64,000 nt of DNA from Candidatus Woesearchaeota archaeon. Its GTDB lineage: Archaea > Nanobdellota > Nanobdellia > Woesearchaeales > GW2011-AR4. The translations under genes were made by a program, and so were the position numbers. Location: the NCBI GenBank assembly GCA_002688775.1, contig NZDH01000004.1, positions 54,543 through 118,542 on the forward strand, written 5' to 3'. The notes beneath the pieces are model-generated. The model was given only the letters and a program-made list of their open reading frames with translations. It did not search any database and was not told the origin of the DNA. Shown piece after piece: positions 6,223 through 63,311 of the stretch; the first letter of the stretch is position 1; every line of letters begins with the position of its first letter.

Positions 6223-6851
6223 CTCATCAAATTCATAAACTCTTCTTTTGTATTGCACTTAAAGTAAGGATTATTCTTTTTTTCATCTCCAATTGTTGAA
6301 GATGGTGTTGAGCCGTAATCGTGGCCGGGGTAAATTTCTATATTATCATCTAATTTTTTGAGTTTTTGCAGACTTTCAAATAATTGAATTGGGTTGCCGC
6401 CAGGCAAGTCTGTCCTGCCGATAGCGCTGACAAATAAGGTATCGCCTGTGATCAATTTGTTTTCAAAAAGAAGGCAGATTGCACCAATTGTATGGCCCGG
6501 TGTGTGGATAATCTTTATTTTTATGTTTCCGACTTTGATTTCTTCATTATCTTTCAATTTTATGAATTTGATTTCGTTTTTTATTGATCTTTTGATTTCA
6601 TCTATTTCCAGTTCATGAAAATAAATTTCTGCTTTTGTTTTATCTGCCAATTCACTGACTTTTTGCACATGATCATAATGGGAATGCGTCAATATTATCT
6701 TTTTTATCTGTAATTTTTCATTGTTTGCAGTTTCTATCAGCTTATCAATATCCCATCCTGCATCTACAATGGCAGCTTCTTTGCTGGCTTCATCTCCAAT
6801 CAAGTAGATGAAGTTCTGCATCGGCCCTACTGGTATTTGCTTGAAGAACAT
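6219..6851 (-). CDS. MBL-fold metallo-hydrolase (glyoxalase II-like)
   Basis: HSHYDH is the HxHxDH zinc motif, and a downstream HTPGHT follows. Confidence 0.75.
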   Translation of the reverse strand: MFFKQIPVGPMQNFIYLIGDEASKEAAIVDAGWDIDKLIETANNEKLQIKKIILTHSHYDHVQKVSELADKTKAEIYFHELEIDEIKRSIKNEIKFIKLKDNEEIKVGNIKIKIIHTPGHTIGAICLLFENKLITGDTLFVSAIGRTDLPGGNPIQLFESLQKLKKLDDNIEIYPGHDYGSTPSSTIGDEKKNNPYFKCNTKEEFMNLMS

Positions 6852-6900
6852 TGTATTAAATAATTTAGAATAATTTATAAATGTTGTTTATTTTTGAAGA

Positions 6901-7535: not shown

Positions 7536-8288
7536 TTATGTAACTTTTCTTGCAAAACTTAAAAATCCAGAATGAATTAAGCCACTACTTTTCGGCCTTA
7601 CTTTTCTGTCTTCAACTTCCCATTCTCTCTGTGTTATTTCAATTGTTTTAAGATAAACAAAATTTTCATTTTTCCTTAAAGTGTTGACAAAATCAGCAAT
7701 TTGAGGTATTGTTGGGCTGTAAGAAACTAAAAATCCTCCTGGTTTTAGCGCTTTTGAGCAACTTTCTAATGCTTTCCATGGTTCAGGCAGATCTAATGTT
7801 ATGACATCTATGTTTTTTTCATCACATTCTTCATAAATATTTTTATTTTCAATCTTTAAATTATTTAAATTCAATAATTCTATATTTTGTTTCACTATTT
7901 CAATAAAATCTTCCCTTATTTCATATGTTATGACTTCTTTTGCAATCTTTGCAAGAAAACAAGCTAAAGCTCCACTTCCAGAACCAGCATCAAGAACTAG
8001 GCTTCCCTTGTTAATGCCTGTTTCTGAAATGATTATCCCAATATCCTTTAATGGTATAATTTGAGCGTCTCTTTTTATTTTTCTATAGACATCTATGAAA
8101 GACGGATCAAATATATGGAATTCTTCATTAGTGTTTGATTTGAGCAAATCACCTTGTTTTGCATTTTTTAGCTCTTCTTTTGATACAAACCCATATTGAG
8201 TATGTAAATCCTGCCCAAGATCTTTGGCATAGAACTTCCTGCCTTGCTTTGTGATAAGTATTTTTTTGATTAGAGCCATAAATAACAA
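7536..8288 (-). CDS. trmI: tRNA (adenine-N1)-methyltransferase TrmI/Gcd14-like
   Basis: VLDAGSGSGALACFLA followed by YEIREDF matches TrmI family members. Confidence 0.7.
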   Translation of the reverse strand: MLFMALIKKILITKQGRKFYAKDLGQDLHTQYGFVSKEELKNAKQGDLLKSNTNEEFHIFDPSFIDVYRKIKRDAQIIPLKDIGIIISETGINKGSLVLDAGSGSGALACFLAKIAKEVITYEIREDFIEIVKQNIELLNLNNLKIENKNIYEECDEKNIDVITLDLPEPWKALESCSKALKPGGFLVSYSPTIPQIADFVNTLRKNENFVYLKTIEITQREWEVEDRKVRPKSSGLIHSGFLSFARKVT

Positions 8289-9333: not shown

Positions 9334-12300
9334 ATGAAAAAACTGAATAAAATATTAAGTGTAATGATTTTGATACTTGCATTTGTGTTATTTTCATCTA
9401 TTGTTTATGCTGCTCCTCTGACTGACATGTTTGTAGGCGGATTAATACAAATTAATGATTTCTTTGAAAATGAGCAATTTGCTCCTTATGCAACTGCAAT
9501 TGACTTTTTCTTCTTTACATTACTGTTCACAGCTATATATATGATGGGTGCAAGGTATGCATTTAAGGAAATTAAAAGACCAGAGCAAGTAATTGTGATT
9601 TTACTCGGATTAATGACTGGGTTTTTGCTTGTGTTAGGTGGTTTTTCAGCAACTATCATTCTTCCTTACATACAATGGCTTTTGTATTTGCTGCTGTTCT
9701 GGATAATCTGGAAATTATTAAGCGGAATAAAAAATCCATTCTGGAGATTTATATTGGCATTGCTGTTGACTTTGCTGCTGATTGCATTGTGGCAAGGGAT
9801 GTTTAATGCATTAACTACACCAGATGTTGGAGCTCCACAAGTTGGTGGATTTTTTGGTTCTATTGGCAAATTCTTTAGAGATCTTGGAAGCAGTTTTACA
9901 GGAATTAAGATGCCAGGAGTCGGAGTGCCTGGAATTCCTGATGCTTTACAGGATCTGTTAGGAGAGCCTGGCGGGGTTGGAGCTGGGGAACCTACTGGGC
10001 CTGAAGGGTTGCCTGTGGTTACGACGCCAACTGGACCAACTGTTGTGGAAGAAGACGGGGGATTTTCTTTAGGGAATTTGTGGTGGATTCCTATTTTAGC
10101 GGCATTATTGTGGGCAGGTAATTATGCGCGCAAGAAGGGATGGCATAAATGGAGACCACGTAAAAAAGATAAACCAAAAACAATAGATGAAGTTAAAGCA
10201 GAGATAGATGATATAATTAGGAAAAAAGCAAATTCTAAAAGAAATATTATAGCAAGAAGCGATGAAAAGAATCAAATTATTCAAGCTGAAGATAGAAGAA
10301 CTGCTTTTTTAAGCAAATTAAGAGATAAAGATCCTGCAAATCTGTTTGGAGATGAAGCTAGAAGAGTAATTGATGCCGAAGGTGGAGCTTTTAAGGAACT
10401 TCTTGACAAAGAAATTCAATTAGTAGATGAACTTAAAAAATTGAAAGGTATAGAGAAAGATTTGTATTTGAAATTAGATCTATGGCAACGATCTCTTCAA
10501 GGTACAGTTGATATAAGTCCAGAAGTAAATGGCCTTAAAATTTTGATTGGTAATAAGACAACTATTCGTGACATAATAAATATGGGTATAATATGGCTAA
10601 CTGTAATCTGCTATGATATTGAAAAACGAAATGAGGTATTGACTAAAGAATTAGGAAGCTTATTGGATGATGAAGATAAAATTGAGGAGCTTGTCCAAGG
10701 CAAATTTACAACTGTTAAAAATGATGAAAGAAAATTAAGTCATTATAATTCAACTGAAATTGAATATATTGAATTATTAGAGCAAAAAATTGATGAGCAG
10801 ATAAATAAATTAAATGAATTAAAAAGAAAAATTGAAGGAACTCCACATACAGGACCTTATGGTGCACCATACGGAGCGCCTTATGGAGCGCCAGGTGGAA
10901 GGCGTGGAGGACCTTATGGAGCTCCTTACGGGGCACCTTATAGTGGTCCTGGTAGTGCAGGACCAACACCTTCTGGAGGGACTGGAAGTCCTTATGGGGC
11001 TCCCTATAGTGCTGCTGGAGCTGGAGGAACTTATGGGGCACCATACGGAGCGCCTTATGGGGCTCCTTATGGAGCGCCAGGTGGAAGGCGTGGAGGACCT
11101 GGTAGAACGACTCCACCTAGAGGTAGAAGAAGAAGTGGCAGACTTAGAATTCTAATGCTCAGCCCAACGCACCCACATGCAAGCAATGGGGTTTCTGAAG
11201 TTGTGAAAAATTTATCTTTAGCTCTAAATTCAATCGGTGTAGATGTTGAGGTACTAACTAAATGGTTTAATGAGCCATATTATTACTATGATAAAATAAA
11301 TTCTGCAGAACAAAAATTTGACACTATTGGAGAATTTTTAAATTCAAAGAACAAAGATTATTATGATTTCATACATTCTCACACATTTACATTTTCACAG
11401 ATTTCTGATACTGGCGATGGAGAAACACCTTGGAATAAATTGTTATCCCATTTTAATGTTCCATCAGCTTATACAGTTCATTCTTTAGATATTCATGAAG
11501 CTTTAACATGTAAGTGGACTTCAACAAATTACAATTATCATAAGTGGGTTGGTGAACAACTTCAACCAGTAGTTTTTGATAGTGTAAACTGCATAATTCA
11601 ATTGACAAAAACCTATAAGGAATTAACTGAAGAAATGTATCCAGGAAAAAATTACAAGTATAAATCGGTTATAATCCCTAACGGTATAATTTTAAAAAAT
11701 AGATATTCAAAACGAACACCAAATCCAAGTGAGATTAATATGCTATACTTGGGTAGATTCGAAAGAAGAAAGGGAATATACGAATTATGTGTTGCTTTTG
11801 GGACCCTTACAAAAAAATATCCAAATTTAAAGCTCCATCTTGTAGGTAGTGGTCAACCGAGAACTCCAATTCCATGGTTTAATCGGGTTGATGTAGAAAC
11901 TAAAGTCATGAAAAGAATACTTAAAAGAGGGAGTGTACCAAGTGATAGGTATGTGCTCCACGGTGTAAAGCGGGGTACAGAGAAGGAAAACATAATTAAT
12001 GATGCTGATTTTGTCATATTACCAAGCTATTTTGAAACTTTCTGCCTAGTTGGCTTAGAAGCGATCAATCAAGCTAGACCACTAATATCATCAAAGGGTC
12101 CGGCTCTTAATGAAGTATACATAGAGAGCGGATTGGCTTATCCAATAGACTTTGGGGAGTTAAGGTACAATTCCGGAGTAAATTCACAGGGCTTTGTTAG
12201 GCTTAGAGTTGAAAAAATAGTTGAAGCAGTTTCAGGTTTCATAGATAACCTTGATGAATATAGGCAAAGATCTGAACAAGTTTGGCAACTAGTCCAAAGA

Positions 12301-13317
12301 AATTCTGAATTATTTAACTGGGTGTCAATTGCAAAAAATACTAAAATAGTTTATGACAGTCTGATTCAAAACGGTTTAGTCCCAAATGTTGAAATTACAG
12401 TTCCAAATTTTATGCCACCTATTAGGCCAAGACCTCCGGGAAGTTCAGGTCCGGGATCTACTGGAAGGGGCACCACACCGCCTGGAGGTTCAGCACCCCC
12501 ACCATCTGGAGGAACTGGAAAAAGAACAACACCTGGAGGTCCTGCTAAGCTGAAGATAATTGAAGTAGATAATCAAAATCCTAAAATAATTGATAATGTT
12601 AGATTTACTTTAAAACTTGAACATCATAAAATACCTAGAGGAACAAGTTATGAAGTAGTCTTAATTGATAGGGATAGAAAAGGAGGAAAAACATTAGGGG
12701 AACGTGAGATCCAAAGATTTAGAATAAGTAAGCTTGTTAACTCTAAGTTTGCAGTTACTGTTGATGCGTCAAGAATTGGTGCTGGAGTGTATGATTATAT
12801 CTTAGTTAGAATCTTGAATATTTATCCTGATTCTGATAATAAAGATCTAGATTCTGATTCAATTACAATTAATGTGTCAGGATCAACTGAAGATGCAAGT
12901 GCTGAATGGCAAAATGCAAAATCTAAATATTCTAGTGATCGTGATTTTATTGGTTTTCTCACGACTGTAAACAGTTTTGATTGGATCAGAGGAAAGTATC
13001 CTAACATTGATTTGGTTAAAGAAGTCGTAAATTTAATAGTAGATGTCCTTATGGATACACCGAGGTATCATGACAACAAAAGAATAAAAAGGAAAGTTTT
13101 GCAAATGTTCCATCCTGATGTTGTTAAAGCATCATCTAAAGAAACTTACGAGTTATATGGGGAACTTTTCAAAAAGTTTAGTGAATATTTCACAAAAGAA
13201 AGACTTGCTAGTCCAACTAGTTATTCAAGAAAAGCTGATGCCTTAAAGCATGACGTTGATTCATTATTCATAGAATATGCAAGAAAGACTGGAAGGACTA
13301 GAAGAAGAGCAGCCTAA
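9334..13317 (+). CDS. 1327-aa mosaic membrane protein: signal peptide + multi-TM module + Gly/Pro linker + coiled coil + PYGAP tandem repeats + GT4 glycosyltransferase + Pro/Gly linker + beta-rich domain + J-domain-like HPD tail
   Basis: The protein starts with a signal-like N-terminus and 4-5 hydrophobic helices. The GT4 core runs RILMLSPTHPH ... LYLGRFERRKG ... LHLVGSG ... FVILPSYFETFCLVGLEAIN, which is the E-x7-E motif. The C-terminal KRKVLQMFHPDVV ... ELFKKFSEYF resembles a J-domain. Confidence 0.75.
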   Translation: MKKLNKILSVMILILAFVLFSSIVYAAPLTDMFVGGLIQINDFFENEQFAPYATAIDFFFFTLLFTAIYMMGARYAFKEIKRPEQVIVILLGLMTGFLLVLGGFSATIILPYIQWLLYLLLFWIIWKLLSGIKNPFWRFILALLLTLLLIALWQGMFNALTTPDVGAPQVGGFFGSIGKFFRDLGSSFTGIKMPGVGVPGIPDALQDLLGEPGGVGAGEPTGPEGLPVVTTPTGPTVVEEDGGFSLGNLWWIPILAALLWAGNYARKKGWHKWRPRKKDKPKTIDEVKAEIDDIIRKKANSKRNIIARSDEKNQIIQAEDRRTAFLSKLRDKDPANLFGDEARRVIDAEGGAFKELLDKEIQLVDELKKLKGIEKDLYLKLDLWQRSLQGTVDISPEVNGLKILIGNKTTIRDIINMGIIWLTVICYDIEKRNEVLTKELGSLLDDEDKIEELVQGKFTTVKNDERKLSHYNSTEIEYIELLEQKIDEQINKLNELKRKIEGTPHTGPYGAPYGAPYGAPGGRRGGPYGAPYGAPYSGPGSAGPTPSGGTGSPYGAPYSAAGAGGTYGAPYGAPYGAPYGAPGGRRGGPGRTTPPRGRRRSGRLRILMLSPTHPHASNGVSEVVKNLSLALNSIGVDVEVLTKWFNEPYYYYDKINSAEQKFDTIGEFLNSKNKDYYDFIHSHTFTFSQISDTGDGETPWNKLLSHFNVPSAYTVHSLDIHEALTCKWTSTNYNYHKWVGEQLQPVVFDSVNCIIQLTKTYKELTEEMYPGKNYKYKSVIIPNGIILKNRYSKRTPNPSEINMLYLGRFERRKGIYELCVAFGTLTKKYPNLKLHLVGSGQPRTPIPWFNRVDVETKVMKRILKRGSVPSDRYVLHGVKRGTEKENIINDADFVILPSYFETFCLVGLEAINQARPLISSKGPALNEVYIESGLAYPIDFGELRYNSGVNSQGFVRLRVEKIVEAVSGFIDNLDEYRQRSEQVWQLVQRNSELFNWVSIAKNTKIVYDSLIQNGLVPNVEITVPNFMPPIRPRPPGSSGPGSTGRGTTPPGGSAPPPSGGTGKRTTPGGPAKLKIIEVDNQNPKIIDNVRFTLKLEHHKIPRGTSYEVVLIDRDRKGGKTLGEREIQRFRISKLVNSKFAVTVDASRIGAGVYDYILVRILNIYPDSDNKDLDSDSITINVSGSTEDASAEWQNAKSKYSSDRDFIGFLTTVNSFDWIRGKYPNIDLVKEVVNLIVDVLMDTPRYHDNKRIKRKVLQMFHPDVVKASSKETYELYGELFKKFSEYFTKERLASPTSYSRKADALKHDVDSLFIEYARKTGRTRRRAA
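10851..11100 (+). repeat. in-frame tandem repeat encoding (P)YGAP units; two near-identical ~60-70-nt blocks at ~10854-10914 and ~11029-11100
   Basis: The nucleotide repeat ccttatgg(g/a)gc(a/g)cc(a/t)ta(c/t)gg... recurs directly. The protein repeats are PYGAPYGAPYGAPGGRRGGP, written twice. Both antisense track ORFs (10715..11116 and 10832..11155) are artefacts of this repeat. Confidence 0.85.
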
Positions 13318-13326
13318 TTTTTCTTA

Positions 13327-14052
13327 TCATCCCTTACTATGCAAGACATATTCCCTTGTGTGAGTAAAATCCAAAGAGAGTCTTGGATCTAAAATTGTTC
13401 TTGTTAATTGGTGTTCAGTTAATACCTGATCTGCTATTGGAAGCTTTCTTATTTTGCCAACCATAGTCGGATCATATCGATAACAATCTATAGCTACTTC
13501 TCTGGTCATAGGCATACCTATAAGGTGTGGTGGAGGTCTTACAAAAAATTCATATTCTATTGTCCCATATCTTTCAGCTGTTTCTTGAAAAGAAACATCA
13601 TCACCACGTTTGTCATCACTTGCGCCCATTAGATTGAGATGTACTAAATTACCCCCCCTATCTTCTATTGCTAACAATCCCCCTCTTGAGTTCTCATATC
13701 TTTCAGGAACATCAGCAACAGTCCAGGCTTCCAAACCAGGTTTAATAATTTGATCTAACATGCATGGATGGGAATGTGAAGCAAAAAGTACAAACCTATC
13801 ATCAGTTGCTAATTGTCGCCTATATGGTAAATTTGCTTGTAAAACTGTAGTCATAATTGATTCCAATCCAGGAATTGCATCCAAAGAGACACTTGTTTCT
13901 GTACCTCCATGAGGATCTGTACATTGTGTAACATATATTTCTGTATCAGAAACTCTTTCTCCAAGTAATAAAATTATATATTCTCTGTCAGTAAGAACCA
14001 TATTTGTCAATGTATCTTTTATCCACTGTGTTATGTATACTGTTTCTACCAT
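13327..14052 (-). CDS. hypothetical protein, compositional outlier, possible JAB/MPN-like HSHP motif
   Basis: The protein is K-poor and T/R/D-rich, unlike its neighbours. LFASHSHP resembles the JAMM core, but the downstream S-x2-D is not conserved. It is convergent with the giant gene. Confidence 0.35.
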   Translation of the reverse strand: MVETVYITQWIKDTLTNMVLTDREYIILLLGERVSDTEIYVTQCTDPHGGTETSVSLDAIPGLESIMTTVLQANLPYRRQLATDDRFVLFASHSHPCMLDQIIKPGLEAWTVADVPERYENSRGGLLAIEDRGGNLVHLNLMGASDDKRGDDVSFQETAERYGTIEYEFFVRPPPHLIGMPMTREVAIDCYRYDPTMVGKIRKLPIADQVLTEHQLTRTILDPRLSLDFTHTREYVLHSKG

Positions 14053-31287: not shown

Positions 31288-31389
31288 TAGCGGAGGCTAG
31301 ATTTGAACTAGCGACCTATGGGTTATGAGCCCATCGGGCACTCCTGATTGGGCGCCTGGAACAGAGTCCAAACTCTGCCCTACTCCGCT
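31288..31389 (-). tRNA. tRNA-Met(CAT), initiator-like (A1:U72, three G-C pairs closing the anticodon stem), with ~27-nt insertion in the D-arm region
   Basis: The minus-strand read is AGCGGAG-TA-[GGGC...48 nt...GCCC-G]-ATGGG-CTCATAA-CCCAT-AGGTC-GCTAG-TTCAAAT-CTAGC-CTCCGCT-A. The acceptor, anticodon and T arms are canonical. The D-arm segment is about 27 nt too long. Confidence 0.75.
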
Positions 31390-32656: not shown

Positions 32657-33796
32657 ATGAAATTAATAAAACGATTGATACCGGTAAGTGAAAGAAGAAC
32701 AGAGCAATATAGGCCAACAGAGGACTTGCCATTTGGTAAAGAAAGATCACCCCATATGGCACTAATGGACTTTGATGGTGAGTCGTGGGTTAATGCAAGA
32801 ATAGTCCCATATGGTAACCTAAGTATTGCACCTGGAGCTGGTACATTTGATTATGGACATGGAATTTTTGAATCACAAAGAGCTTTCTTGCATCCAGATG
32901 GAGAAGTACACATATTTAGATATGGTGATAATGCTCAAAGGATGAATTTTTCTGCTGATAGGCTTTGCATGCCAGAATTACCTGCTGAACTTCATGAAGA
33001 ATTAGTTAATATGTTGGTTGATGTTGATAGGCTGTCAGTTCCTGATAGACCAGACCATTCATTATATATAAGATCTAAAATGATTGGCACTGAAGATTCT
33101 CTTGGTGTCAGAGAGGGAAATACATATTTATTTTGTGCATACACTTCTCCAAGCGGTCCAATTTATCCAGGGGGACTATCAACACCAGTAAAACTTTTAC
33201 TAACATCTAAGTATCATCGAGCTGGACCTGGAGGTACTGGTGCTATAAAAGCAGGAGGAAATTACGCTGGATCTTTCAAGCCACGACAGCTTGCCAGAAG
33301 TATTGGTGCTGATGATGTGCTTTATTTAGATGTTACAGATCGTTTTCTTCAGGAAGTTGGTGCAACAAATTATTTTCAAGTTCTAGATGATGGTACTTTT
33401 GTGATTCCTAAATTTTCTGATACTATACTTAGATCCATTACTGCTTTAACTGCGTTAGAGATATGTAGAGATCTGGATATTCCTTTTAGGCAAGATATAT
33501 TGACATTAGATGGCTTGGTAGAGGGCCTTTCCCCACCTAGTCCTACAATTTTAGAAAATGGTGTTTTAGGTACTGCCGCAGGTATTAAAAATGTTGGATC
33601 ATTTGTTTTAAGTCCTGAATTGGCATCTCGATATGGAGTTAGTGATCTAATTGTTGGTGATGGTAATCTAGGAGAGATTACTAGGAGAGTTCATGAAAGA
33701 TATACCAAAGTCACAAGAGGACTTTTAGAGGATACACATAGATGGCTAAAAAAAGTTGAAAGAAATCAGGGAAGCAGACTAGAAATAGCTGTTTAA
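32657..33796 (+). CDS. ilvE: branched-chain amino acid aminotransferase (class IV PLP fold)
   Basis: FDYGHGIFE and GGNYAGS-like motifs are present. The protein is K-poor, unlike its neighbours. Confidence 0.7.
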   Translation: MKLIKRLIPVSERRTEQYRPTEDLPFGKERSPHMALMDFDGESWVNARIVPYGNLSIAPGAGTFDYGHGIFESQRAFLHPDGEVHIFRYGDNAQRMNFSADRLCMPELPAELHEELVNMLVDVDRLSVPDRPDHSLYIRSKMIGTEDSLGVREGNTYLFCAYTSPSGPIYPGGLSTPVKLLLTSKYHRAGPGGTGAIKAGGNYAGSFKPRQLARSIGADDVLYLDVTDRFLQEVGATNYFQVLDDGTFVIPKFSDTILRSITALTALEICRDLDIPFRQDILTLDGLVEGLSPPSPTILENGVLGTAAGIKNVGSFVLSPELASRYGVSDLIVGDGNLGEITRRVHERYTKVTRGLLEDTHRWLKKVERNQGSRLEIAV

Positions 33797-39626: not shown

Positions 39627-39956
39627 TTAGAAACTTATTCTTTCAGTTAATTCATCAATGTTTTCTCCGGGATAAGGTACTATATTTCCCAAATGAATGA
39701 ATCTTTGTTTTGGATCTGTGCTTACTCGAACAAACTCGCCAATATACCTATCATCATAAACTAGAGATACTCGATAAGATTCACCTCGAATTTGAACTGT
39801 TCCAGTTCTGCCATGAAGAAGTATCCCATTATCATTGGTATGCACTACATCATCAACTGAAACTGGTTTAGGAAGTGATGTTGGAATTTCTATTCTAACA
39901 AAATCAGGTGGGACTTCAACTGTTGGAGGTGCAACTGCTGTAGCAGCACTTGCCAT
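39627..39956 (-). CDS. hypothetical protein
   Basis: An intact ORF with a Pro/Val-rich N-terminus. I recognise no motif. Confidence 0.3.
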   Translation of the reverse strand: MASAATAVAPPTVEVPPDFVRIEIPTSLPKPVSVDDVVHTNDNGILLHGRTGTVQIRGESYRVSLVYDDRYIGEFVRVSTDPKQRFIHLGNIVPYPGENIDELTERISF

Positions 39957-54936: not shown

Positions 54937-55008
54937 TGCCCCTGCCGAGATTTGAACTCGGGTTAAAAGCTCCGCAAGCTCTCGTGTTGTCGACTACACT
55001 ACAGGGGC
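54937..55008 (-). tRNA. tRNA-Arg(GCG)
   Basis: The minus-strand read is GCCCCTG-TA-GTG-TAGTCGACAA-CAC-G-AGAGC-TTGCGGA-GCTTT-TAAC-CCGAG-TTCAAAT-CTCGG-CAGGGGC-A. Confidence 0.75.
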
Positions 55009-55120
55009 GTAAACTGGAGTTTAGAAATACGATATATAAAGTTTGTTGAAGCTAAATTTTACTACTTGATTATAGTAACAAATAGAAAGCTTTATAAAGG
55101 GTTGTTTAGGAACAATATAT

Positions 55121-55855
55121 ATGATAAAAGATCCAACACTAGATGACATTATAACATTTTCATGTGGAATTGGAAGGTCTTACGAGGAAGCAGAGAGAGC
55201 TTTAAGGAAAGCTAAAGCCAGGAAGGATGCTTTTAAAGGACCTAGCAGGACAGATCCAAATGTTGTTGTTTATCAAGGAGATAGAATTCAAGACAGAGAA
55301 GATTGGGCTAATGCATTAGATTACAGAAGAATCCTAAGAATAGTTGAAGAGAACCATAATGATCGAAGGGACTTGGATGCAGTTGAAAGAATGGCAAGAG
55401 ACCCTCAAACTGGATTATACAATGCTATGGGCTATGCTCATAGGCGCCTTGAATTAAGTGAACTGGGGATTAATAACGGCTATTACATACTTCTTGATGG
55501 AAACAATATGAAACAAGAAAACGCCAGGATTGGATCATCTCATGTTAATGATTTATTGGCCGAGGCTGGCAAAGGTTTGATTGAAGCTACAAGATCAGGA
55601 ACTGAAAGAAGGGTTTCTACAGAACAACCCACAAATGAGGATAGAAGGAAAAAAGAGGATAGAAGGAAATATCAAGATGAAGGAGACATCATAGCGCATA
55701 GGGTACATGGTGATGGTGATGAATTTTTGGTTTTTGTTCCAACAGAGTATAGAAGAAAAAATATCAGGGAGAATATGCAATCTGTGGCTGAACGTATTTC
55801 GGGATTTATGCATGTTTATCAAGGCAGATATATAAGAAAAAACTTTATGATTTAA
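55121..55855 (+). CDS. GGDEF-family (diguanylate-cyclase-like) nucleotidyl cyclase domain protein with variant HGDGDEF motif
   Basis: DPQTGLYNAMGYAHRR matches D-x-L-TGL-x-NRR. YYILLDGNNMKQENARIGSSHVNDLL lines up with IDHFKxINDxxGHxxGD. IAHRVHGDGDEFLVFV lines up with the R-x-GGDEF strand. The protein is R/D/E-rich and K-poor. Confidence 0.55.
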   Translation: MIKDPTLDDIITFSCGIGRSYEEAERALRKAKARKDAFKGPSRTDPNVVVYQGDRIQDREDWANALDYRRILRIVEENHNDRRDLDAVERMARDPQTGLYNAMGYAHRRLELSELGINNGYYILLDGNNMKQENARIGSSHVNDLLAEAGKGLIEATRSGTERRVSTEQPTNEDRRKKEDRRKYQDEGDIIAHRVHGDGDEFLVFVPTEYRRKNIRENMQSVAERISGFMHVYQGRYIRKNFMI

Positions 55856-55881: not shown

Positions 55882-57441
55882 TCATTCACCGTAGTCCCTC
55901 AAACTAATCTGGCCTTTTCTTTTATTTTGTGGAACAGATTTTAGTTCCTGCCCGAGCTGCTTCTTTATGCTCAGCGCAGTCTTCTCGCCTATCAGCTGGG
56001 TCAAAGTAGAAAGATCTGTATTTTTGATGTCTTTGATGTCTTTCAGCCTGTTCCTGAATAGAATTCTAGCTCTAACTCGCCCAATGTTTTCCATTCTAAC
56101 TAATGGCAATAATTCTTCCTTGACACCATATTTTAATCTCAATCTTAATTTTACAATTTCTTTAATTAATGACTGATAGTGCATTATTTTGGATATCTCT
56201 TCTGTTGCGTAGAGCAGCCAATCAGCAATATCAAGCTTAACTTTTATTTCGCCCGGCCTTATGTTGTATTCCTCAAGAAGAAATTCTTCATCTTTCTCGC
56301 TTATCCAGTGATTGAACATCATGGCAGTTTTTATAGAATTCAGGAAATCTTCATATTCTGGTTCATACATTGAAGGCTCGTTCTCAAGCAACAAATCGCT
56401 GAATTCAAACAATGATTCTTGTATCTTGTCATGTTCCCTGATTCCTACCCTCATGATTGGCCTTATCTCCAAAGTGCGTGAAATCATCTGTAAAAAGGAG
56501 AATGCATCAACTTTTTTGTCAGAAGCATTTCTCATGCATGTAATGATGAAATAAGCAGTTAAAGGATCTATATACAGCTCTGCAACTCTTTTTCCAATCA
56601 AAGTTGCCTTTAGTTTTTCATCCTCTAGCTCGTTAGCGCTTGAAAATTCATCCCGGGAGCTCATTATGAATTCCCAATCATCCAGTAAATCAATCACCTT
56701 GTTGATTGTCCCATGAAGCCTTCTTAAATCCTTGAATTGGTAAGCGTAAAATGTCCTGTCAAAGAATTCATAGAGCTCTTTTTTTGTTGTTATAAAATTA
56801 GCTGCAATTAATGATAAAACATGAGTTCTGAGAACCGGTTCCACTGCCAGCTTTGAATAGATGTCTTCTGGTGAACCTTCCAGGTATCTCTCTTCTATTT
56901 TTTCCTTCTCCGAATTTGTCAGTGCTATTACAATTGATTGTCCTTCTTTGTCATAATTGGGACGGCCAGCTCTTCCAGACATCTGCATGTAATCCAGAAT
57001 AGGAATCCAGCTTAATCCGTGCATAGTGTATCTTCTTAAGTCTTTAATTATGGCCCTGTATGCAGGCAGATCAACACCGTAAGCAAGAGTCGGTGTGCAG
57101 CAGATTATGCTTATTGCACCTTTTCTAAAATTATCTTCTATAATGTCTTTTTGTTTCTGGGTCAATCCAGCATGGTGAAAAGCAATGCCTTTTTTTAAGC
57201 AGAATGCCAGTCTTTCGCACTGCTTGGTTGGCTTTGAAAGAACATCCAGGGCTTTGTCAGCTAAATTTATTAATTCTGTGCTGTCTGTCTTAAGTTTTTT
57301 TGAAATATCCTCGGCGGTTTTCTCAGCTGATTTTTTTGTATTTACGAACACCAAAGCCTGTTTTCCAATTTTTATAGTATCTAAAGCAATATTCAGAACA
57401 CCGCTGTCAAATTTGTCATCTATATTGATGGGCTTGGACAT
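55882..57441 (-). CDS. Hel308/Ski2-like helicase C-terminal half only (RecA domain 2 + winged helix + ratchet/Sec63-like + HhH); N-terminal DEAD/DEAH domain 1 absent
   Basis: GIAFHHAGL and QMSGRAGR (motif VI) mark helicase domain 2. The protein begins at the start of domain 2, and the upstream ORF is unrelated. Confidence 0.65.
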   Translation of the reverse strand: MSKPINIDDKFDSGVLNIALDTIKIGKQALVFVNTKKSAEKTAEDISKKLKTDSTELINLADKALDVLSKPTKQCERLAFCLKKGIAFHHAGLTQKQKDIIEDNFRKGAISIICCTPTLAYGVDLPAYRAIIKDLRRYTMHGLSWIPILDYMQMSGRAGRPNYDKEGQSIVIALTNSEKEKIEERYLEGSPEDIYSKLAVEPVLRTHVLSLIAANFITTKKELYEFFDRTFYAYQFKDLRRLHGTINKVIDLLDDWEFIMSSRDEFSSANELEDEKLKATLIGKRVAELYIDPLTAYFIITCMRNASDKKVDAFSFLQMISRTLEIRPIMRVGIREHDKIQESLFEFSDLLLENEPSMYEPEYEDFLNSIKTAMMFNHWISEKDEEFLLEEYNIRPGEIKVKLDIADWLLYATEEISKIMHYQSLIKEIVKLRLRLKYGVKEELLPLVRMENIGRVRARILFRNRLKDIKDIKNTDLSTLTQLIGEKTALSIKKQLGQELKSVPQNKRKGQISLRDYGE

Positions 57442-57484: not shown

Positions 57485-57859
57485 TTATTTATGTGGAGGA
57501 TTTTTTAAAACTTTAAATGCTTCATCATCATCCATTGACAATGTCCTAAATTCTATTTTACCGGTTAAAGGATGTTTTACAATTTCTATTTTTGTAAAAT
57601 ATACAGGGCCACCCATCTTAGTTATTGTAAGATCATCGCGAATTTCATTGTCGCTTCCTCCTGCGCCTCCAAGAACACCAGACACCTCGCTATAAATCAC
57701 ATCCAACAGCATGTTTATTGTGACTCTTAGTTTTTCTAATGCTTCTGTTGTATATCTTCCTCTTCGAGAAGCTGCAAAATTTTGTTTTTCCAATTCAGTT
57801 ATGCAGCTCTGAAGCAACTGCAGGAAACTCCATACATTATCAATCACAATCTTTGTCAT
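57485..57859 (-). CDS. hypothetical protein
   Basis: The ORF is intact and I recognise no motif. Confidence 0.3.
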   Translation of the reverse strand: MTKIVIDNVWSFLQLLQSCITELEKQNFAASRRGRYTTEALEKLRVTINMLLDVIYSEVSGVLGGAGGSDNEIRDDLTITKMGGPVYFTKIEIVKHPLTGKIEFRTLSMDDDEAFKVLKNPPHK

Positions 57860-57931: not shown

Positions 57932-60220
57932 TCAAACAACATTAACATTAATCAATTGCGTAACAGAATGAGTGCCATCGCTTACAGTTACTTTAACAGC
58001 TTTATTTCCTCTGCTTGTGAAAGTTCTTTGATGGTATTGCGTCCCTTTGTGCCTGTCAAAAAGACCGAAATCCCAGGTGTAAGTCAATTGGTTGTTGTCA
58101 TCGTCAACTGCTTTGACGAACATAAGGACTGGATCATTGACTTTTACAACTAAGTTTCTGCTATAATCAACTATTCTTGGAACTGTGCTTTGTGCAGCTG
58201 CCACTTGGCTGCTGCCATCCTGAATTACAACCTGATTGAATACTTTTGTTTCCCTGACTGTGACATTTATTTTACGAATTGACAGGTAGACTGTATCATT
58301 GAATAATAATCCTAATTCCTTGTCCGAATCGCGTACGAACACGTTCATCACATGATGCGCTTCATCTATTCCATCGCTTACAGTCACTATGACAGTTTTT
58401 GATCCAGGCGTAGTATAAACTCTTTGAAGATTTTCACCAGCTTTGTATTTCTCCAAAAGACCGAAATCCCAGGTGTAAGTCAATTGGTTGTTGTCATCGT
58501 CAACTGCTTTGACGAACATAAATACTGGCTGGTTTACATCTGTTATAAGGCCTTGAGTTGCATTAATGATTCTTGGAGGCCTGTTTTTATCGGTTACTTC
58601 AACTTTAGCGACTTGTTTTGAGGTTGCCTGGCCGTCGCTTGCAGCAAATACAAAATCAAAAGTTTTTGGCCCTTGGTAATTGGCAATAAATGAATGAGGC
58701 ACCCAAGTGAAAACATTTTCCTTTAATGTGAAGTCTGCAGGGGGGTTCTCTATGGAATAAGAAATATGGTCGCCATCTGGATCATGCGCATCAAGTACAA
58801 TAGTTACAGTATCCCCTTCATTTGCTTTAATATCCTTAATCTTATTTAATACTGGGGCCCTGTTAGATTGTCGAATGATTATTTGCACATTCTTTGAATC
58901 TTCCAATCTTCCATCGCTTACAGTCACTGTGACAGTATGGTTTCCTGCATCGTCAAATCCTGATTCATAGGTGTCAGAATTCATGAATCCCGAATAACTG
59001 AAGCTTAATTTATCGCCATCAAGATCGTATGCTTTAGGGGCAATGTTTACTGTTTCTCCTTCATTGATTGTCATAGTATCAAAATCTTCCAAAATTGGTG
59101 CCCTATTCACGTCTCTGACGGTTATTATAACATTACGGACAACTCTTTGGTCCTGTGAAGAAGCAACAAATTTTACGTAAAAGCTTTTAGTCAATATGTT
59201 AAGCTTGTCCATCACATAATCCACGAAATCATCTTTTTTGACAGTATCAAATCCAGGAGTCCATGTAAAAACATTCTCTTTAAATTCTGCCCCTGCAGGA
59301 ATCCTTTCTACACTATAGGTGACTTCTTCGCCATCAGGGTCTGTTGCGCTTAAAGTTATGATTATCTCCTGGTTTTCATTGATAACTTTACTGCCGATCC
59401 TGTCAAAAATTGGCGGCCTGTCTACGTTATTCACAACAACTTCCGCATCTGTTTCACCGCTAAATCCATTTCCTTCTGCTTTTACATTTATGTTGTAAGA
59501 GCCTTCACCATCATAAGTTGTCTGCCACTCGTTTCTGTTGCCAAGAGGCTCAGAAATTGTGTAGGTAAGGCCGTATTTTTCAAAATCAAGAAGTTCCAAT
59601 CTTGCAATCTCATTTTCATTGACAGTTACGTCTTGGATATCATCAAGTAATCTTTGAATATCAATATCCTGCACATTTACATCTCTTTCTTCACTTACTT
59701 TATGCAGACCATCTGATACTATTACAATCACTTTGTGGGTGCCTGCATCGCTGTACGAAGTGCTATAGAAATATTCCTGGCCTTCTTTGACTATTGTTCC
59801 ATCTAAATACCATTCGTAAGTTAAAGGATCATTGTTTAAGTCGCTTGCAGAAACTCTGAATTGTATTGTATCACTTTCCTTAGTGTTTACAGGATCCTCT
59901 TCTGGAACAAAAAGATCAATGGTTGGAGGTTCTTCTTTTCTTTCAACAATTATTAGTATATCCTCAGAATCGATTGCAAGGCCATCAGAAACAGTTATTG
60001 CTGTTTTGTATTCTCCAGCATCGCCGTATGTGGTCTGCCACGATCCATTTTCGTTTAATGGAGAATCATAGGTTGTGACCAAGTCATCATTATCCGGATC
60101 TATAGCTTCCGGCTTTAAGTTTATTTCATCAGTCTCTTGGATTACAAATGTGGTAAGAGAGTATACAAAATAGGGAAACACCAGAAATATAATTACTAGT
60201 AATGCAATGTTTCTCTTCAT
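57932..60220 (-). CDS. secreted surface protein with multiple PKD-like Ig-fold repeats
   Basis: A signal peptide opens the protein. The unit LTYxWxxDG...Y.Y.TxY.DAGxHxVxVxVSDG recurs, with TYTWDFGL as the PKD signature. Confidence 0.7.
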   Translation of the reverse strand: MKRNIALLVIIFLVFPYFVYSLTTFVIQETDEINLKPEAIDPDNDDLVTTYDSPLNENGSWQTTYGDAGEYKTAITVSDGLAIDSEDILIIVERKEEPPTIDLFVPEEDPVNTKESDTIQFRVSASDLNNDPLTYEWYLDGTIVKEGQEYFYSTSYSDAGTHKVIVIVSDGLHKVSEERDVNVQDIDIQRLLDDIQDVTVNENEIARLELLDFEKYGLTYTISEPLGNRNEWQTTYDGEGSYNINVKAEGNGFSGETDAEVVVNNVDRPPIFDRIGSKVINENQEIIITLSATDPDGEEVTYSVERIPAGAEFKENVFTWTPGFDTVKKDDFVDYVMDKLNILTKSFYVKFVASSQDQRVVRNVIITVRDVNRAPILEDFDTMTINEGETVNIAPKAYDLDGDKLSFSYSGFMNSDTYESGFDDAGNHTVTVTVSDGRLEDSKNVQIIIRQSNRAPVLNKIKDIKANEGDTVTIVLDAHDPDGDHISYSIENPPADFTLKENVFTWVPHSFIANYQGPKTFDFVFAASDGQATSKQVAKVEVTDKNRPPRIINATQGLITDVNQPVFMFVKAVDDDNNQLTYTWDFGLLEKYKAGENLQRVYTTPGSKTVIVTVSDGIDEAHHVMNVFVRDSDKELGLLFNDTVYLSIRKINVTVRETKVFNQVVIQDGSSQVAAAQSTVPRIVDYSRNLVVKVNDPVLMFVKAVDDDNNQLTYTWDFGLFDRHKGTQYHQRTFTSRGNKAVKVTVSDGTHSVTQLINVNVV
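58058..58522. repeat. intragenic ~70-bp near-identical direct duplication (copies at ~58058-58125 and ~58455-58522) within the PKD gene
   Basis: The shared sequence is aagaccgaaatcccaggtgtaagtcaattggttgttgtcatcgtcaactgctttgacgaacataa. The antisense track ORFs 57911..58153 and 58424..58621 share KTEIPGVSQLVVVIVNCFDEHK. Confidence 0.8.
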
Positions 60221-60376: not shown

Positions 60377-61462
60377 TCACTCTTTTTGCAATACATCTGT
60401 TATGACTGGAGGCCTGTTTTGATTCTCAACAGCTACTGTAAAAGTCTGTGAGGATTCATCTTGACCATCGCTTGCAGTTACAGTAACTTCGTAAGTGCCT
60501 GCACTGTCATAATCTGTTTGCCATCTGAAAACATTATCTTCCTGCTCAAATCTGCCATCGTCTATTTCATAAGTTACAGGATCTTCGTCATCATCTGTTG
60601 CTAATGCAGTTATTATAACTAAGTCGGTTTCTTTAACTTCTATGTGGTCTAAATCCTCTAAAACTGGCCTTCTGTTAACATTTCTAACTTCTACAGACCA
60701 AATCTTACTTGCACTTGACAATCCATCTGAAACATCAATTTTAACAGTGTGTGTGCCTGCGTCATCATAGGTTGTCTGGTATGTGTATTCTGCGTCATCT
60801 CCAACATCCAGGCCGTCAAGTTTCCATGAATAGGATAAAGGATCGTTGTTCAAGTCGCTTGCAACAACACTAAAATCTATAGATTCTGTCTCATCAATAA
60901 CTAATCCACTTTCAATTGGCCATGCACTGTCAATTGTTGGTGATTCTTCTTTTTTATTAACAATAATCAAAACATCTCTTGTTGTTGCTAATTCTCCGTC
61001 TGAAACAGTAACAGTAATTGTATACTCTCCGGAATCACCATAAATTGTCTGCCATTCGCCGGCATCGCTTATTGGAGAAGTAAATGTAAAAGTCAAATCA
61101 TCCCTATCAGGATCTTCTGCTTTTGGTATTAAGCTGATAAGATCTGTTTCCTGAACAACTAAAACAATAGGATTTTCTTTTTCTTCATCAACTACAATAA
61201 TGGTTGGTTCCTCTTCAGTTTCTTCTTCATCTGATACTTCTTCTTCAACATCTTCTTCTGTCTCTTCTTCCATGTCTTCTTCTGAATCTTCATCATCATC
61301 TACAGTTTCCTCGTCCCCATTATCCTGGACATCTGGCCCTTGTGTAGTATTTCCATAAAGAGTTTGATAAACCTCGCAACTGCTTAATAAAAATATAGAA
61401 AGCACTAATAATACAATCAATGATTTTGTTTTGAAATTGATCATAAACCCTCCCATTGCCAT
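60377..61462 (-). CDS. secreted surface protein with PKD-like repeats and an acidic D/E-rich N-terminal stretch
   Basis: A signal peptide is followed by DDDEDSEEDMEEETEEDVEEE and PKD-like units with SDG-ending strands. Confidence 0.65.
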   Translation of the reverse strand: MAMGGFMINFKTKSLIVLLVLSIFLLSSCEVYQTLYGNTTQGPDVQDNGDEETVDDDEDSEEDMEEETEEDVEEEVSDEEETEEEPTIIVVDEEKENPIVLVVQETDLISLIPKAEDPDRDDLTFTFTSPISDAGEWQTIYGDSGEYTITVTVSDGELATTRDVLIIVNKKEESPTIDSAWPIESGLVIDETESIDFSVVASDLNNDPLSYSWKLDGLDVGDDAEYTYQTTYDDAGTHTVKIDVSDGLSSASKIWSVEVRNVNRRPVLEDLDHIEVKETDLVIITALATDDDEDPVTYEIDDGRFEQEDNVFRWQTDYDSAGTYEVTVTASDGQDESSQTFTVAVENQNRPPVITDVLQKE

Positions 61463-61820: not shown

Positions 61821-63311
61821 TTAAAAATTAACATCTTCAATTTCTTTTTTTATCACAACTTTTCCCGTTATTGATCTCAGCATATGACCTGTAATCTCAA
61901 TATCATAAAACTTTTTTAACTCAAGTCTTCCCTTTACACCAACAATCAAGGGATAAGTGCCGAATTGCCTGCAGAAAGTTGTTTTGCCATCATAAATTTC
62001 AGCATAGCAATTTGTGAGCACTGTTTCTCTGGGAACAATCCTTTGGAGCATTGGCCAGTCAATATTTTGCCTGATGTCGTTTCTCCATTTCCAGTAAAAT
62101 TTTTTGTTCTTTCTCAGGAATTTATCTTTTCCTTCATTGTAAAGGGAAGTGCCTTCAAAAATTGCAACTTGTCTTATGTTTATTCTTCTAAGCATCAGGC
62201 CTTCATCATAAATTTTCTTTAGCCATTTCATGTTTTCTTCATGGGTTTTTTTGCTTTCTGCCCTTAATCCGAAGATGATGTTAATGCCGGGCAGGTATCT
62301 TGGCATTCCATCTTGGCCTGTGTCTGCACCGTATTTGTTGAGGATCCTTATTGCTTCATAGGCTATGTTTGGAGCGGTATTTAGGGTATTGGCCTTCACA
62401 ACTTCCATATCGAAGCTTTCAATTCCAAAAGCAGCTATATTACCAGAAGTGCAATACTTTACAACGGCTTTTGTAATTTCGTGGTTTTTATCCATAACGA
62501 CTTTAACCGGGTTGACATTGTCTATATGCAGAACTTTTAGTTCCGGACAATTTTTTCTGATTTCTTTTAACAGATCAATTGCATAAGGCAAGGTGTAAAA
62601 ACAAGTTTGTTTTCCCAGTCTAAAAAAGCGTGCTCCTAATTTGTAGAATTCCGTGATTTCTTTTAATACGTCGTCTTTATCTCTGAATTCAACCCTATTT
62701 TTTATTGGCTCTGTGCAAAAGCTGCACTTCCCAATATCGCAGCCATGGCCTGTCTCAATCTCTATCATTCTATAATCAGGTATTTGTTTCAGGATTTGTG
62801 CACCTTCAACAGAATAATCTTTCACATCAGAATATTTGAATCTGAAAAGGGAGTAATCTATTTTGTCGAATAATGTCAGATCTGCTTTTTCACGAAATTT
62901 GCCCCCGTGCAATTGAGTGCCAAAAACAGCAGGTCCTGTAAGTATTTTTTTACATTTCAAATCTTTAATCAAGGGCATTATTTCATGCAAAGTTCCAGGC
63001 ACAGCAGATAAGTATTTGCCAGGCACGTGGATACCCAGAACAACAATTAAAGTATCGGTTTCCTCTAATATTTTTTTGACATCTTTATAGTTTGATGTTA
63101 AATTATAAGTTGTAATATCTGTTTTCTGTGATGGTTTTGTTTCTTTGACTCTTGAATTATGCTTTCTCCAAAGTCTTAAATCATCAATTGTTAGATAATG
63201 CACATCTTCATCAAGATAGCCTGCTATATATCTGGGATAAGTTCCGAGATATGGGGGAACTCCTAATCCTGCTGGTTCATCTGTATAGCAGTCCAATATT
63301 GTGTATTTCAT
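61821..63311 (-). CDS. radical-SAM-like Fe-S enzyme with N-terminal B12-binding-like domain (function unknown)
   Basis: ETGHGCDIGKCSFCTE gives a C-x4-C-x2-C cluster motif. I recall the N-terminal DCYTDEPAGLGVPPY from an archaeal radical-SAM subgroup. Confidence 0.45.
   Translation of the reverse strand: MKYTILDCYTDEPAGLGVPPYLGTYPRYIAGYLDEDVHYLTIDDLRLWRKHNSRVKETKPSQKTDITTYNLTSNYKDVKKILEETDTLIVVLGIHVPGKYLSAVPGTLHEIMPLIKDLKCKKILTGPAVFGTQLHGGKFREKADLTLFDKIDYSLFRFKYSDVKDYSVEGAQILKQIPDYRMIEIETGHGCDIGKCSFCTEPIKNRVEFRDKDDVLKEITEFYKLGARFFRLGKQTCFYTLPYAIDLLKEIRKNCPELKVLHIDNVNPVKVVMDKNHEITKAVVKYCTSGNIAAFGIESFDMEVVKANTLNTAPNIAYEAIRILNKYGADTGQDGMPRYLPGINIIFGLRAESKKTHEENMKWLKKIYDEGLMLRRINIRQVAIFEGTSLYNEGKDKFLRKNKKFYWKWRNDIRQNIDWPMLQRIVPRETVLTNCYAEIYDGKTTFCRQFGTYPLIVGVKGRLELKKFYDIEITGHMLRSITGKVVIKKEIEDVNF

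Follow-up and report, generated by a model that had tools for sequence, protein, structure and literature searches.

Reviews place diguanylate cyclases almost entirely in bacteria (PMC10249747, PMC5847659). In archaea essentially one GGDEF protein was known by 2018, others being suspected contamination, and inactivated GGDEF domains had been noted in the DPANN archaeon 'Ca. Micrarchaeum' (Galperin et al. 2018, PMC5847659). BLAST later returned over 300 archaeal matches, chiefly from the Asgard and DPANN groups, with no cyclic di-GMP (c-di-GMP) found in two model archaea (Braun et al. 2021, PMC8646023). Here we describe a gene at positions 55121–55855 of a 64 kb stretch of DNA from a Woesearchaeota (DPANN) archaeon (contig NZDH01000004.1; the whole stretch analysed is called the window). 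An earlier note on this DNA had proposed that the gene encodes a GGDEF-like nucleotidyl cyclase, horizontally acquired. We consider it probable that the product is a nucleotidyl cyclase whose circularly permuted GGDEF domain (palm fold) stands alone, and that the gene is vertically inherited in a Woesearchaeota lineage.

The protein was compared with canonical GGDEF cyclases (PF00990; PleD 1w25, WspR 3bre/3i5c, DgcZ 3tvk/4h54, T. maritima 4urs), with the Hypr GGDEF enzymes that make 3',3'-cyclic GMP-AMP (cGAMP; GacA of Geobacter, PDB 5VS9, and Bd0367), and with mCpol (PF18182/NF033576; Panoptes OptS 9mnr) and Cas10 palms, which belong to the same palm superfamily. In common with canonical GGDEF domains it has the DPxTGL turn, D126, N134, R194, the residues G-D-E-F, K32 and a helical stalk before the core. 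Unlike them, its family is permuted, with the last β-α-β unit first; another residue stands in place of the first Gly of GGDEF, and the hairpin has 2–3 extra residues; an insert of 2–38 residues (30, and Arg-rich, in the window protein) interrupts the RxxD site; and the window protein has no sensor domain and an archaeal host. Its parts, in order along the gene, are as follows; pLDDT is the predicted local distance difference test of the AlphaFold model.

55121–55855 (+): whole gene of the circularly permuted GGDEF-domain protein, ATG start, 244 aa
55142–55276 (+): residues 8–52, strand (FSCGIG), helix (EEAERALRKAKARK) and strand (NVVVY); from Pfam mCpol, hhalign and the model
55277–55396 (+): residues 53–92, two-helix linker (63–78, 82–90); from AlphaFold model 2, the hhalign match starting at residue 82
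55397–55591 (+): residues 93–157, first half of the GGDEF core; from Pfam GGDEF, PDB profile search and hhalign
55592–55687 (+): residues 158–189, Arg-rich, probably disordered insert between R158 and D189; from the hhalign gap and pLDDT
55688–55741 (+): residues 190–207, β2–β3 hairpin with R194 and G199-D200-E201-F202; from the 78-sequence alignment and hhalign
55763–55846 (+): residues 215–242, long helix equivalent to canonical α3 but extended; from AlphaFold model 2 and hhalign

Assignment to the GGDEF family

The gene is the sole long open reading frame (ORF) at the locus, and the translation carries the motifs exactly as the earlier note had described them: D94-P-Q-T-G-L-Y-N101...R108R109, LLDGNNMKQENARIGSSHVNDLL at residues 124–146, and H196GDGDEF202. 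Taken alone, the window protein matches Pfam GGDEF (PF00990) with 16.6 bits and an E-value of 0.007, over residues 93–159 and profile positions 3–72; NCBIfam and a single-sequence search of PDB sequences gave nothing relevant for it. A word-indexed protein search returned eight homologues with 43–59% identity. Pfam GGDEF matches eight of these nine close family members, with a best E-value of 1.4e-12, and the top 13 matches of a PDB search with the nine-protein profile are all GGDEF domains. The top structural matches include 6d9m, in which T4 lysozyme is fused to a GGDEF domain from Geobacter.

An exhaustive profile search of 1.84 billion representatives yielded 425 proteins at E-values of 1e-3 or below, 56 of them at 1e-10 or below, and those ranked highest are 200–280 aa long and matched end to end. 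Comparison by hhalign of the family alignment (45 members) with a canonical GGDEF alignment (62 canonical-order matches from the exhaustive search) gave probabilities of 99.4–99.7 and E-values of 5e-22 to 9e-27. The risk that the earlier note saw for its assignment was that the motifs might fail in a proper multiple alignment; they form conserved columns in the 78-sequence alignment, and since they are conserved across a family of at least 78 sequences the motif set is not a product of chance. AlphaFold model 2 of the window protein is a single compact fold (pLDDT 81.8; predicted template modelling score, pTM, 0.80).

The archaeal origin of the sequence is consistent with its labels. A protein identical to the window protein is labelled at NCBI as 'Candidatus Woesearchaeota archaeon', as are both named proteins among the nine, and every named family member is assigned to Woesearchaeota or to an 'uncultured archaeon'. 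Genome contigs searched with the family alignment yielded no relatives, and a single-protein query returned only the metagenome-assembled genome of P0003 itself. On its sequence, the window protein can thus be placed with high confidence of fold as a GGDEF-type palm-domain nucleotidyl cyclase homologue, and the identity proposed earlier for an archaeal protein is borne out. Two other families were tried and rejected: the Pol-β-like nucleotidyltransferase fold that marks CD-NTases (cGAS/DncV-like) was not found, and the match to the mCpol/Cas10 palm (PF18182) is confined to residues 10–37, below threshold at E-values of 0.004–0.5.

Circular permutation of the domain

Residues 8–52 of the window protein correspond to the final β-α-β unit of a canonical GGDEF domain (SxGxG...A..AL..AK), placed at the N-terminus. 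The segment IITFSCGIGRSYEEAERALRKAKARK...NVVVY resembles the domain end tvSiGva...AD.ALY.AK..GrNrvvv, with K32 at the position of the phosphate-binding Lys of ALYxAK. In the collinear order the SiGva strand and ALYxAK helix follow GGDEF; here the unit precedes the core, and the C-terminus of the protein, after the long helix, falls where the strand SiGva would come next.

Profile comparison with the canonical GGDEF alignment supports this order. In native order hhalign gave a score of 144.9 over 115 columns (template 25–140 of 201), and with the first 38 residues shifted to the C-terminus a score of 173.3 over 150 columns (template 25–185). The N-terminal block alone was placed on template columns 148–185 (SiGia...AD.ALY.AK) with a probability of 91.3 and a score of 35.6, against 9.3 ± 2.3 (maximum 14.9) for 40 column-shuffled blocks and 13.3 for the reversed block. 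The N-terminal strand and helix are also the most confident part of the structural model (pLDDT 94–96).

The same unit accounts for the likeness to mCpol. The N-terminus matches the mCpol Pfam model in seven of the nine close family members; residues 11–34 score weakly against the end of that model (positions 83–106 of 114), and in the PDB search profile positions 10–37 match mCpol residues 95–122 of 131. It is thus the C-terminal strand-helix of mCpol that the N-terminal strand-helix resembles (E-values 0.004–0.03). Unlike mCpol itself, only this 25-residue unit matches, below threshold, and the remainder of the protein matches GGDEF proper.

Relatives in canonical order carry the same segment after GDEF. 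P0122 has SFSAGIGRSPIEADAALSEAKRDK at residues 176–201, and P0072 and P0066 share this arrangement, as do P0063 and P0112, in which the SxGxG-helix unit likewise follows GDEF. P0066 (258 aa) also has the other motifs of the family (DGD..H..N, RVNGSKGDEY, SVGVG...EALMKAK), the trailing YVLY strand included; it is a singleton in the database, with no other homologues above threshold. In the region L013 836–2578 its gene starts 24 nt past a RelA_SpoT (alarmone synthetase-like) gene. The permuted order is found in 77 of the 168 proteins collected, and at least 77 protein clusters share it.

We therefore conclude with high confidence, from these alignments, that the sequence order of the GGDEF domain is circularly permuted, a feature that the earlier note had missed. 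No permuted GGDEF domain was found in the limited library of literature searched, and as far as that literature shows circular permutation is undescribed for GGDEF domains. Because the domain is permuted, standard domain models under-call these proteins, most of which are annotated 'hypothetical'.

The same arrangement could in principle be a remnant, with the tail of one decayed GGDEF domain joined to a second that has lost its C-terminal part, or the ORF could have been called wrongly. Permutations usually arise when a duplication is followed by truncation, so that an intermediate could look similar, and the Pfam HMMER score hardly moves when the N-terminal block is relocated in silico (16.6 to 17.8, 24.8 to 26.8 and 33.4 to 32.7 bits). 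Weighed against this are the same architecture and length (about 200–280 aa) in 77 clusters, the invariance of G16 and G18 (78/78) with A24, A27, A31 and K32 nearly so, the single compact AlphaFold fold whose N-terminal unit is the most confident part, and a conserved promoter and tRNA upstream that leave no space for a longer ORF. We regard a remnant as highly improbable.

Active-site residues and the arginine-rich insert

The circularly permuted domain appears to keep the residues needed for catalysis. Residues 93–157 comprise the DPxTGL turn and β1 with D126, the metal ligand, N134, which contacts the base on its sugar face, and position 143. In the alignment of 78 permuted sequences, G16, G18, G104, D126, N134, D189, D200 and E201 are invariant, R194 and G199 are each present in 77, and K32 and F202 in 70. 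The residue before GDEF is Ser in 44 members, Asp in 14 (including the window protein), Thr in six and Gly in five. Activity has been reported for natural enzymes with AGDEF or SGDEF. Ahead of the core, the linker of residues 53–92 is the counterpart of the helical 'stalk' found before canonical GGDEF domains; its length varies across the family, and it is a probable dimerisation element.

Since the metal, base-contact and GDEF residues are near-invariant over 78 sequences, an active cyclase is likely. The family looks catalytically competent, possibly with differing purine specificity; we are moderately confident of cyclase activity and have little confidence in any particular product.

Between β1 and the hairpin lies the insert. 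R158 and D189 align by hhalign with the Arg and Asp of the canonical RxxD inhibitory site, which lies five residues ahead of GGDEF, and with 30 residues separating them they do not form the RxxD product-inhibition site itself. The spacing from the Asn to GDEF is 64 residues, against 33 in 49 of 64 canonical domains. pLDDT falls below 50 at residues 161–169 and 178–187. Over the family, D189 is kept in 78/78 members and R158 in 71/78, with insert lengths of 2–38 aa. In the window protein the insert carries [DE]RR units and a tandem 18-nt duplication at 55633–55668 (AAATGAGGATAGAAGGAA / AAAAGAGGATAGAAGGAA), which encodes NEDRRK-KEDRRK; it is an Arg-rich loop evolving through local duplication. 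A similar insert, TRSGxDRR...RR, is present in the canonical-order proteins P0063 and P0112. Our guess is that the insert probably modulates product feedback or binds some other anionic ligand.

These features bear on a further explanation, in which the protein, its GGDEF-like domain catalytically dead, serves as a nucleotide receptor or as a protein or nucleic-acid scaffold, with the Arg-rich loop as its functional part. The degenerate first position of GGDEF, the disordered 30-residue Arg-rich insert with its recent tandem duplication in the I-site loop, a Pfam score below threshold for the window protein and the 'Ca. Micrarchaeum' precedent of inactivated domains (PMC5847659) would all fit. 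The insert itself is variable and unconserved beyond the close clade, whereas D126, N134, D200 and E201 are kept in 78/78 divergent sequences and R194 in 77/78. Degenerate receptor GGDEFs usually lose metal or substrate residues. A dead domain thus seems to us quite improbable.

Product specificity and cyclic-dinucleotide turnover

In described enzymes guanine is recognised by an Asn and an Asp nine residues further on (PleD N335/D344; GacA N339/S348); the canonical Asp reads the guanine Watson-Crick face, its Hypr equivalent is Ser348, and the Ser/Thr form works with GGDEF only, not GGEEF (Hallberg et al. 2019, PMC6456294). The spacing from N134 to position 143 is nine residues in the window family, as in those enzymes, and every member keeps the Asp of GDEF. 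At position 143, Asp is present in 44 members, Thr in 23, Ser in six and Asn in five (n = 78). Most close orthologues have Asp.

The GGDEF fold might accordingly house other chemistry or make another product, as a Hypr-like synthase of cGAMP or cyclic di-AMP, an enzyme that produces linear pppNpN or short oligonucleotides, like the Cas10 and mCpol palms, or an NTPase, like the GGDEF domain of GdpP/YybT. The Asn-143 of the window protein and the Ser/Thr of 29/78 relatives, Asn-x8-(Ser/Thr) always being paired with GDEF, recall the Hypr signature (PMC6456294), and the replaced first Gly, the lengthened hairpin, the weak N-terminal mCpol score and the lack of c-di-GMP turnover or receptor genes among the window ORFs scanned would agree with a different product. 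On the other side, the profile-profile match is to classical GGDEF (99.7%) and not to mCpol or Cas10, and position 143 is the canonical Asp in 44/78 relatives, most close orthologues included. Unlike the Hypr enzymes, moreover, the window protein has Asn at this position, no receiver domain and a permuted topology, and no cGAMP riboswitch was found. Unlike mCpol and Cas10, its neighbours are a tRNA gene, the C-half of Hel308 and PKD-domain proteins; no CARF, SAVED or other effector and no CRISPR context occurs at the window or the related loci, and PADLOC has no match. We hold other chemistry or another product to be unlikely for the permuted GGDEF protein.

Partners were sought in the window with a Pfam scan that covered 53 of its 56 non-overlapping ORFs of at least 100 aa (all but 57932–60220, 60377–61462 and 61821–63311 at its right-hand end). 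The earlier note had suggested looking for c-di-GMP receptors or phosphodiesterases, and none was found among these 53 ORFs, which is a weak negative.

Genomic context and inheritance

The loci compared were the window, L001, L003 and L006, whose orthologues are 52–59% identical, and L007, whose protein P0158 is 24–28% identical depending on the alignment. In all five Woesearchaeota genomes the same block is found, in the order tRNA-Arg, GGDEF-like gene, Hel308 C-half, PKD proteins.

54937–55008 (−): tRNA-Arg(GCG); ARAGORN, and Rfam RF00005 with 63 bits
55033–55040 (−): distal TATA box TATATAAA, some 28 nt from the 5' end of the tRNA; relatives have TTTATAAA
55059–55078 (no strand): inverted repeat TTACTA-N8-TAGTAA between the two TATA boxes; five-locus alignment
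55080–55098 (+): transcription factor B recognition element (BRE)-like AAATAGAAAG, then TATA box TTTATAAA (55091–55098); invariant in five loci
55882–57441 (−): Hel308 C-terminal 'half' (RecA2, winged helix, ratchet, HhH); Pfam, NCBIfam
L001 4905–6464, L003 8743–10302, L006 4624–6183, L007 7744–9294: Hel308 C-half orthologues, conserved context

The tRNA-Arg gene that the earlier note had placed beside the GGDEF-like gene is present. It diverges from that gene, with its 5' end towards it and its 3' end away, and in L001, L003, L006 and L007 the equivalent site is occupied by a tRNA whose acceptor and anticodon arms have the same sequence. These four copies, all on the minus strand (L001 about 3920–4040, L003 about 7760–7890, L006 3631–3769, L007 about 6750–6890), have insertions that are presumably introns, the one in L003 apparently in the T-loop; the window's copy is intron-less. 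None of the four is called by ARAGORN, and Rfam detects just the one in L006 (139 nt); DNA alignment shows the others. Elsewhere in the window, 31292–31344 (−) is a marginal partial match to the tRNA model (30.3 bits, gathering 29; positions 4–67, 53 nt) that is absent from the ARAGORN calls and may be a tRNA fragment or half, or chance.

From its position, the distal TATA box would be the promoter of the tRNA gene, and the proximal BRE/TATA pair is taken as that of the GGDEF-like gene. About 26 nt separate the proximal TATA centre from the ATG downstream, a spacing that points to an mRNA with no leader or almost none. The inverted repeat between them is conserved in all five loci, where neither arm differs by more than one base, despite protein identity down to 24–28%; it occurs as a single exact copy in the window and is also exact in L003, L004 and L005. 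It is a candidate regulator binding site or operator.

Downstream, the Hel308 C-half lacks the first RecA (DEAD/DExH) domain and matches Hel308 model positions 227–714 of 739. The earlier note had called it a truncated helicase gene, which holds for the missing domain and not for decay: at 516–519 aa in five genomes, the same length throughout, it is a stable split gene. It is convergent with the GGDEF-like gene, 4–27 bp apart, and followed by PKD-domain proteins in the four related loci. No ORF with GxGKT and DExH, as expected of a Hel308 N-terminal half, is present near the gene in the window or in the fetched loci, so that half is encoded elsewhere or absent. We list the C-half as conserved context only.

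Large PKD/cadherin-like repeat proteins, probably surface proteins, adjoin the Hel308 C-half in all related loci; in the window they are encoded at 57932–60220 (−) and 60377–61462 (−), with DNA repeats spaced 396, 1014 and 2220 nt. A 124-aa ORF at 57485–57859 was rejected as a member of the conserved unit, having no homology to the small membrane proteins found there in relatives. To the left of the gene, DFP and HAD hydrolase genes are common to the window and L003, and neither the window nor the fetched loci contain a paralogue of that gene. Otherwise the window encodes archaeal housekeeping functions (AspRS, SerRS, GatA/GatB, Cdc6, HerA, deoxyhypusine synthase, RNase HII, V-ATPase subunit I). 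It also encodes, at 9334–13317 (+), a 1327-aa protein in which long N- and C-terminal regions without domain assignment flank a GT4 glycosyltransferase domain, which has in addition a Pfam 'GT4-conflict' match (E-value 7e-7).

The composition of the protein is unusual and that of its DNA is not. Arg makes up 12.7% of residues against a window mean of 4.0% (standard deviation 2.0), and Lys 4.9% against 9.9% (standard deviation 3.6), so that the earlier remark on a K-poor, R-rich protein was correct. Close orthologues are also Arg-rich (8.6–12.7%), and the trait therefore belongs to the protein; it reflects no anomaly of nucleotide composition. The gene has a GC content of 0.376 and a third-position GC content (GC3) of 0.265, it encodes Arg with AGA/AGG, like the rest of the window, and its tetranucleotide distance is at the 57th percentile among all 735-bp windows; the codon and tetranucleotide comparison that the earlier note had proposed, here run against the window, shows a typical gene. 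Three further ORFs have more Arg than Lys (R/(K+R) 0.69–0.80), at 13327–14052 (−), 32657–33796 (+) and 39627–39956 (−). One is a class IV aminotransferase and two are without Pfam match; their GC3 is very low (0.14–0.19), unlike the rest of the window, and tblastn shows no relation to the GGDEF-like family.

On a fuller version of the earlier account the gene would be a horizontally acquired signalling or defence cyclase, inserted at the tRNA-Arg in an island that disrupts the helicase gene. The tRNA adjacency, the amino-acid composition and the rarity of GGDEF in archaea would suit that account, as would the distant family member P0047 (region L009 1269–7771), which lies beside integrase, TrbC pilin and reverse-transcriptase genes. 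Another distant member, P0065 (region L011 4992–7771), is near a class III cyclase gene. The synteny of tRNA, gene, Hel308 C-half and PKD proteins, together with the promoters, is conserved in five genomes at identities down to 24–28%, and this, with the typical composition of the DNA, contradicts acquisition at a tRNA integration site. Neither end of the tRNA-Arg, whose 3' end faces away, is repeated anywhere in the window, no relevant direct repeats occur at 54–61 kb, and the attachment-site repeats that the earlier note had suggested looking for are thus missing. No integrase is found among the neighbours of the gene, and the helicase half has kept its length in all five genomes. A defence role finds no support, as PADLOC matched neither the GGDEF-like protein nor its 124-aa neighbour and a scan of viral contigs found no relative of the protein. 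Synteny, promoters, ordinary composition, the lack of tRNA repeats and archaeal labels together lead us to reject an island for this lineage, and to give such an insertion almost no credence. We have high confidence that the GGDEF-like gene is vertically inherited in the Woesearchaeota lineage.

Proposed mechanism and implications

Several observations weigh against a native, permuted cyclase. The window protein alone falls under the Pfam gathering score (16.6 against 23.8 bits), and the in-silico move of the N-terminal block barely changed the Pfam/HMMER scores, the local alignment stopping at the insert. The window protein has Asn at position 143. The family does not conserve the first Gly of GGDEF and has a longer hairpin, so that activity could be altered. 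Within the 64 kb searched, no EAL, HD-GYP or PilZ domain occurs among the ORFs scanned, and there is no cyclic-dinucleotide riboswitch in the window or the four related loci. A 2023 review states that c-di-GMP is undetected in archaea (PMC10249747). Finally, the packing of the N-terminal strand (residues 13–18) beside β1 in the palm sheet is an inference.

With these points in mind, the permuted cyclase could work as follows. Its N-terminal strand would fill the palm sheet, and two protomers would pair through the stalk and the C-terminal helices, each binding one purine NTP with Mg2+. The dimer would then make a 3',5'-cyclic dinucleotide, which would be c-di-GMP if position 143 acts like the canonical Asp. 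The product might also be mixed or contain adenine, since the residue is Asn here and Ser/Thr in 29/78 relatives, as in the Hypr enzymes. Expression would come from the gene's own TATA/BRE promoter, divergent from tRNA-Arg, and the palindrome between the promoters may provide transcriptional control. We offer tentatively the wider proposal that an active permuted GGDEF enzyme makes a cyclic dinucleotide throughout the lineage, c-di-GMP in members with Asp-143 and mixed or adenine-containing products in those with Ser, Thr or Asn.

Archaeal GGDEF matches were earlier suspected as contamination or recent transfers. The synteny, promoter architecture and invariant residues described here argue that the enzyme is native and functional in these archaea, which depend on hosts and have reduced genomes, and the window protein points, as far as its sequence can tell, to cyclic-dinucleotide signalling in archaea. 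If this is correct, archaea would have a first native second-messenger system built on GGDEF, one that works without the known EAL, HD-GYP or PilZ partners, and its chain topology would be one undescribed for this enzyme family. The permuted GGDEF domain is a natural experiment on how far the palm fold tolerates re-threading, and this sensor-less protein of 244 aa is a small, concrete candidate for archaeal cyclic-dinucleotide synthesis.

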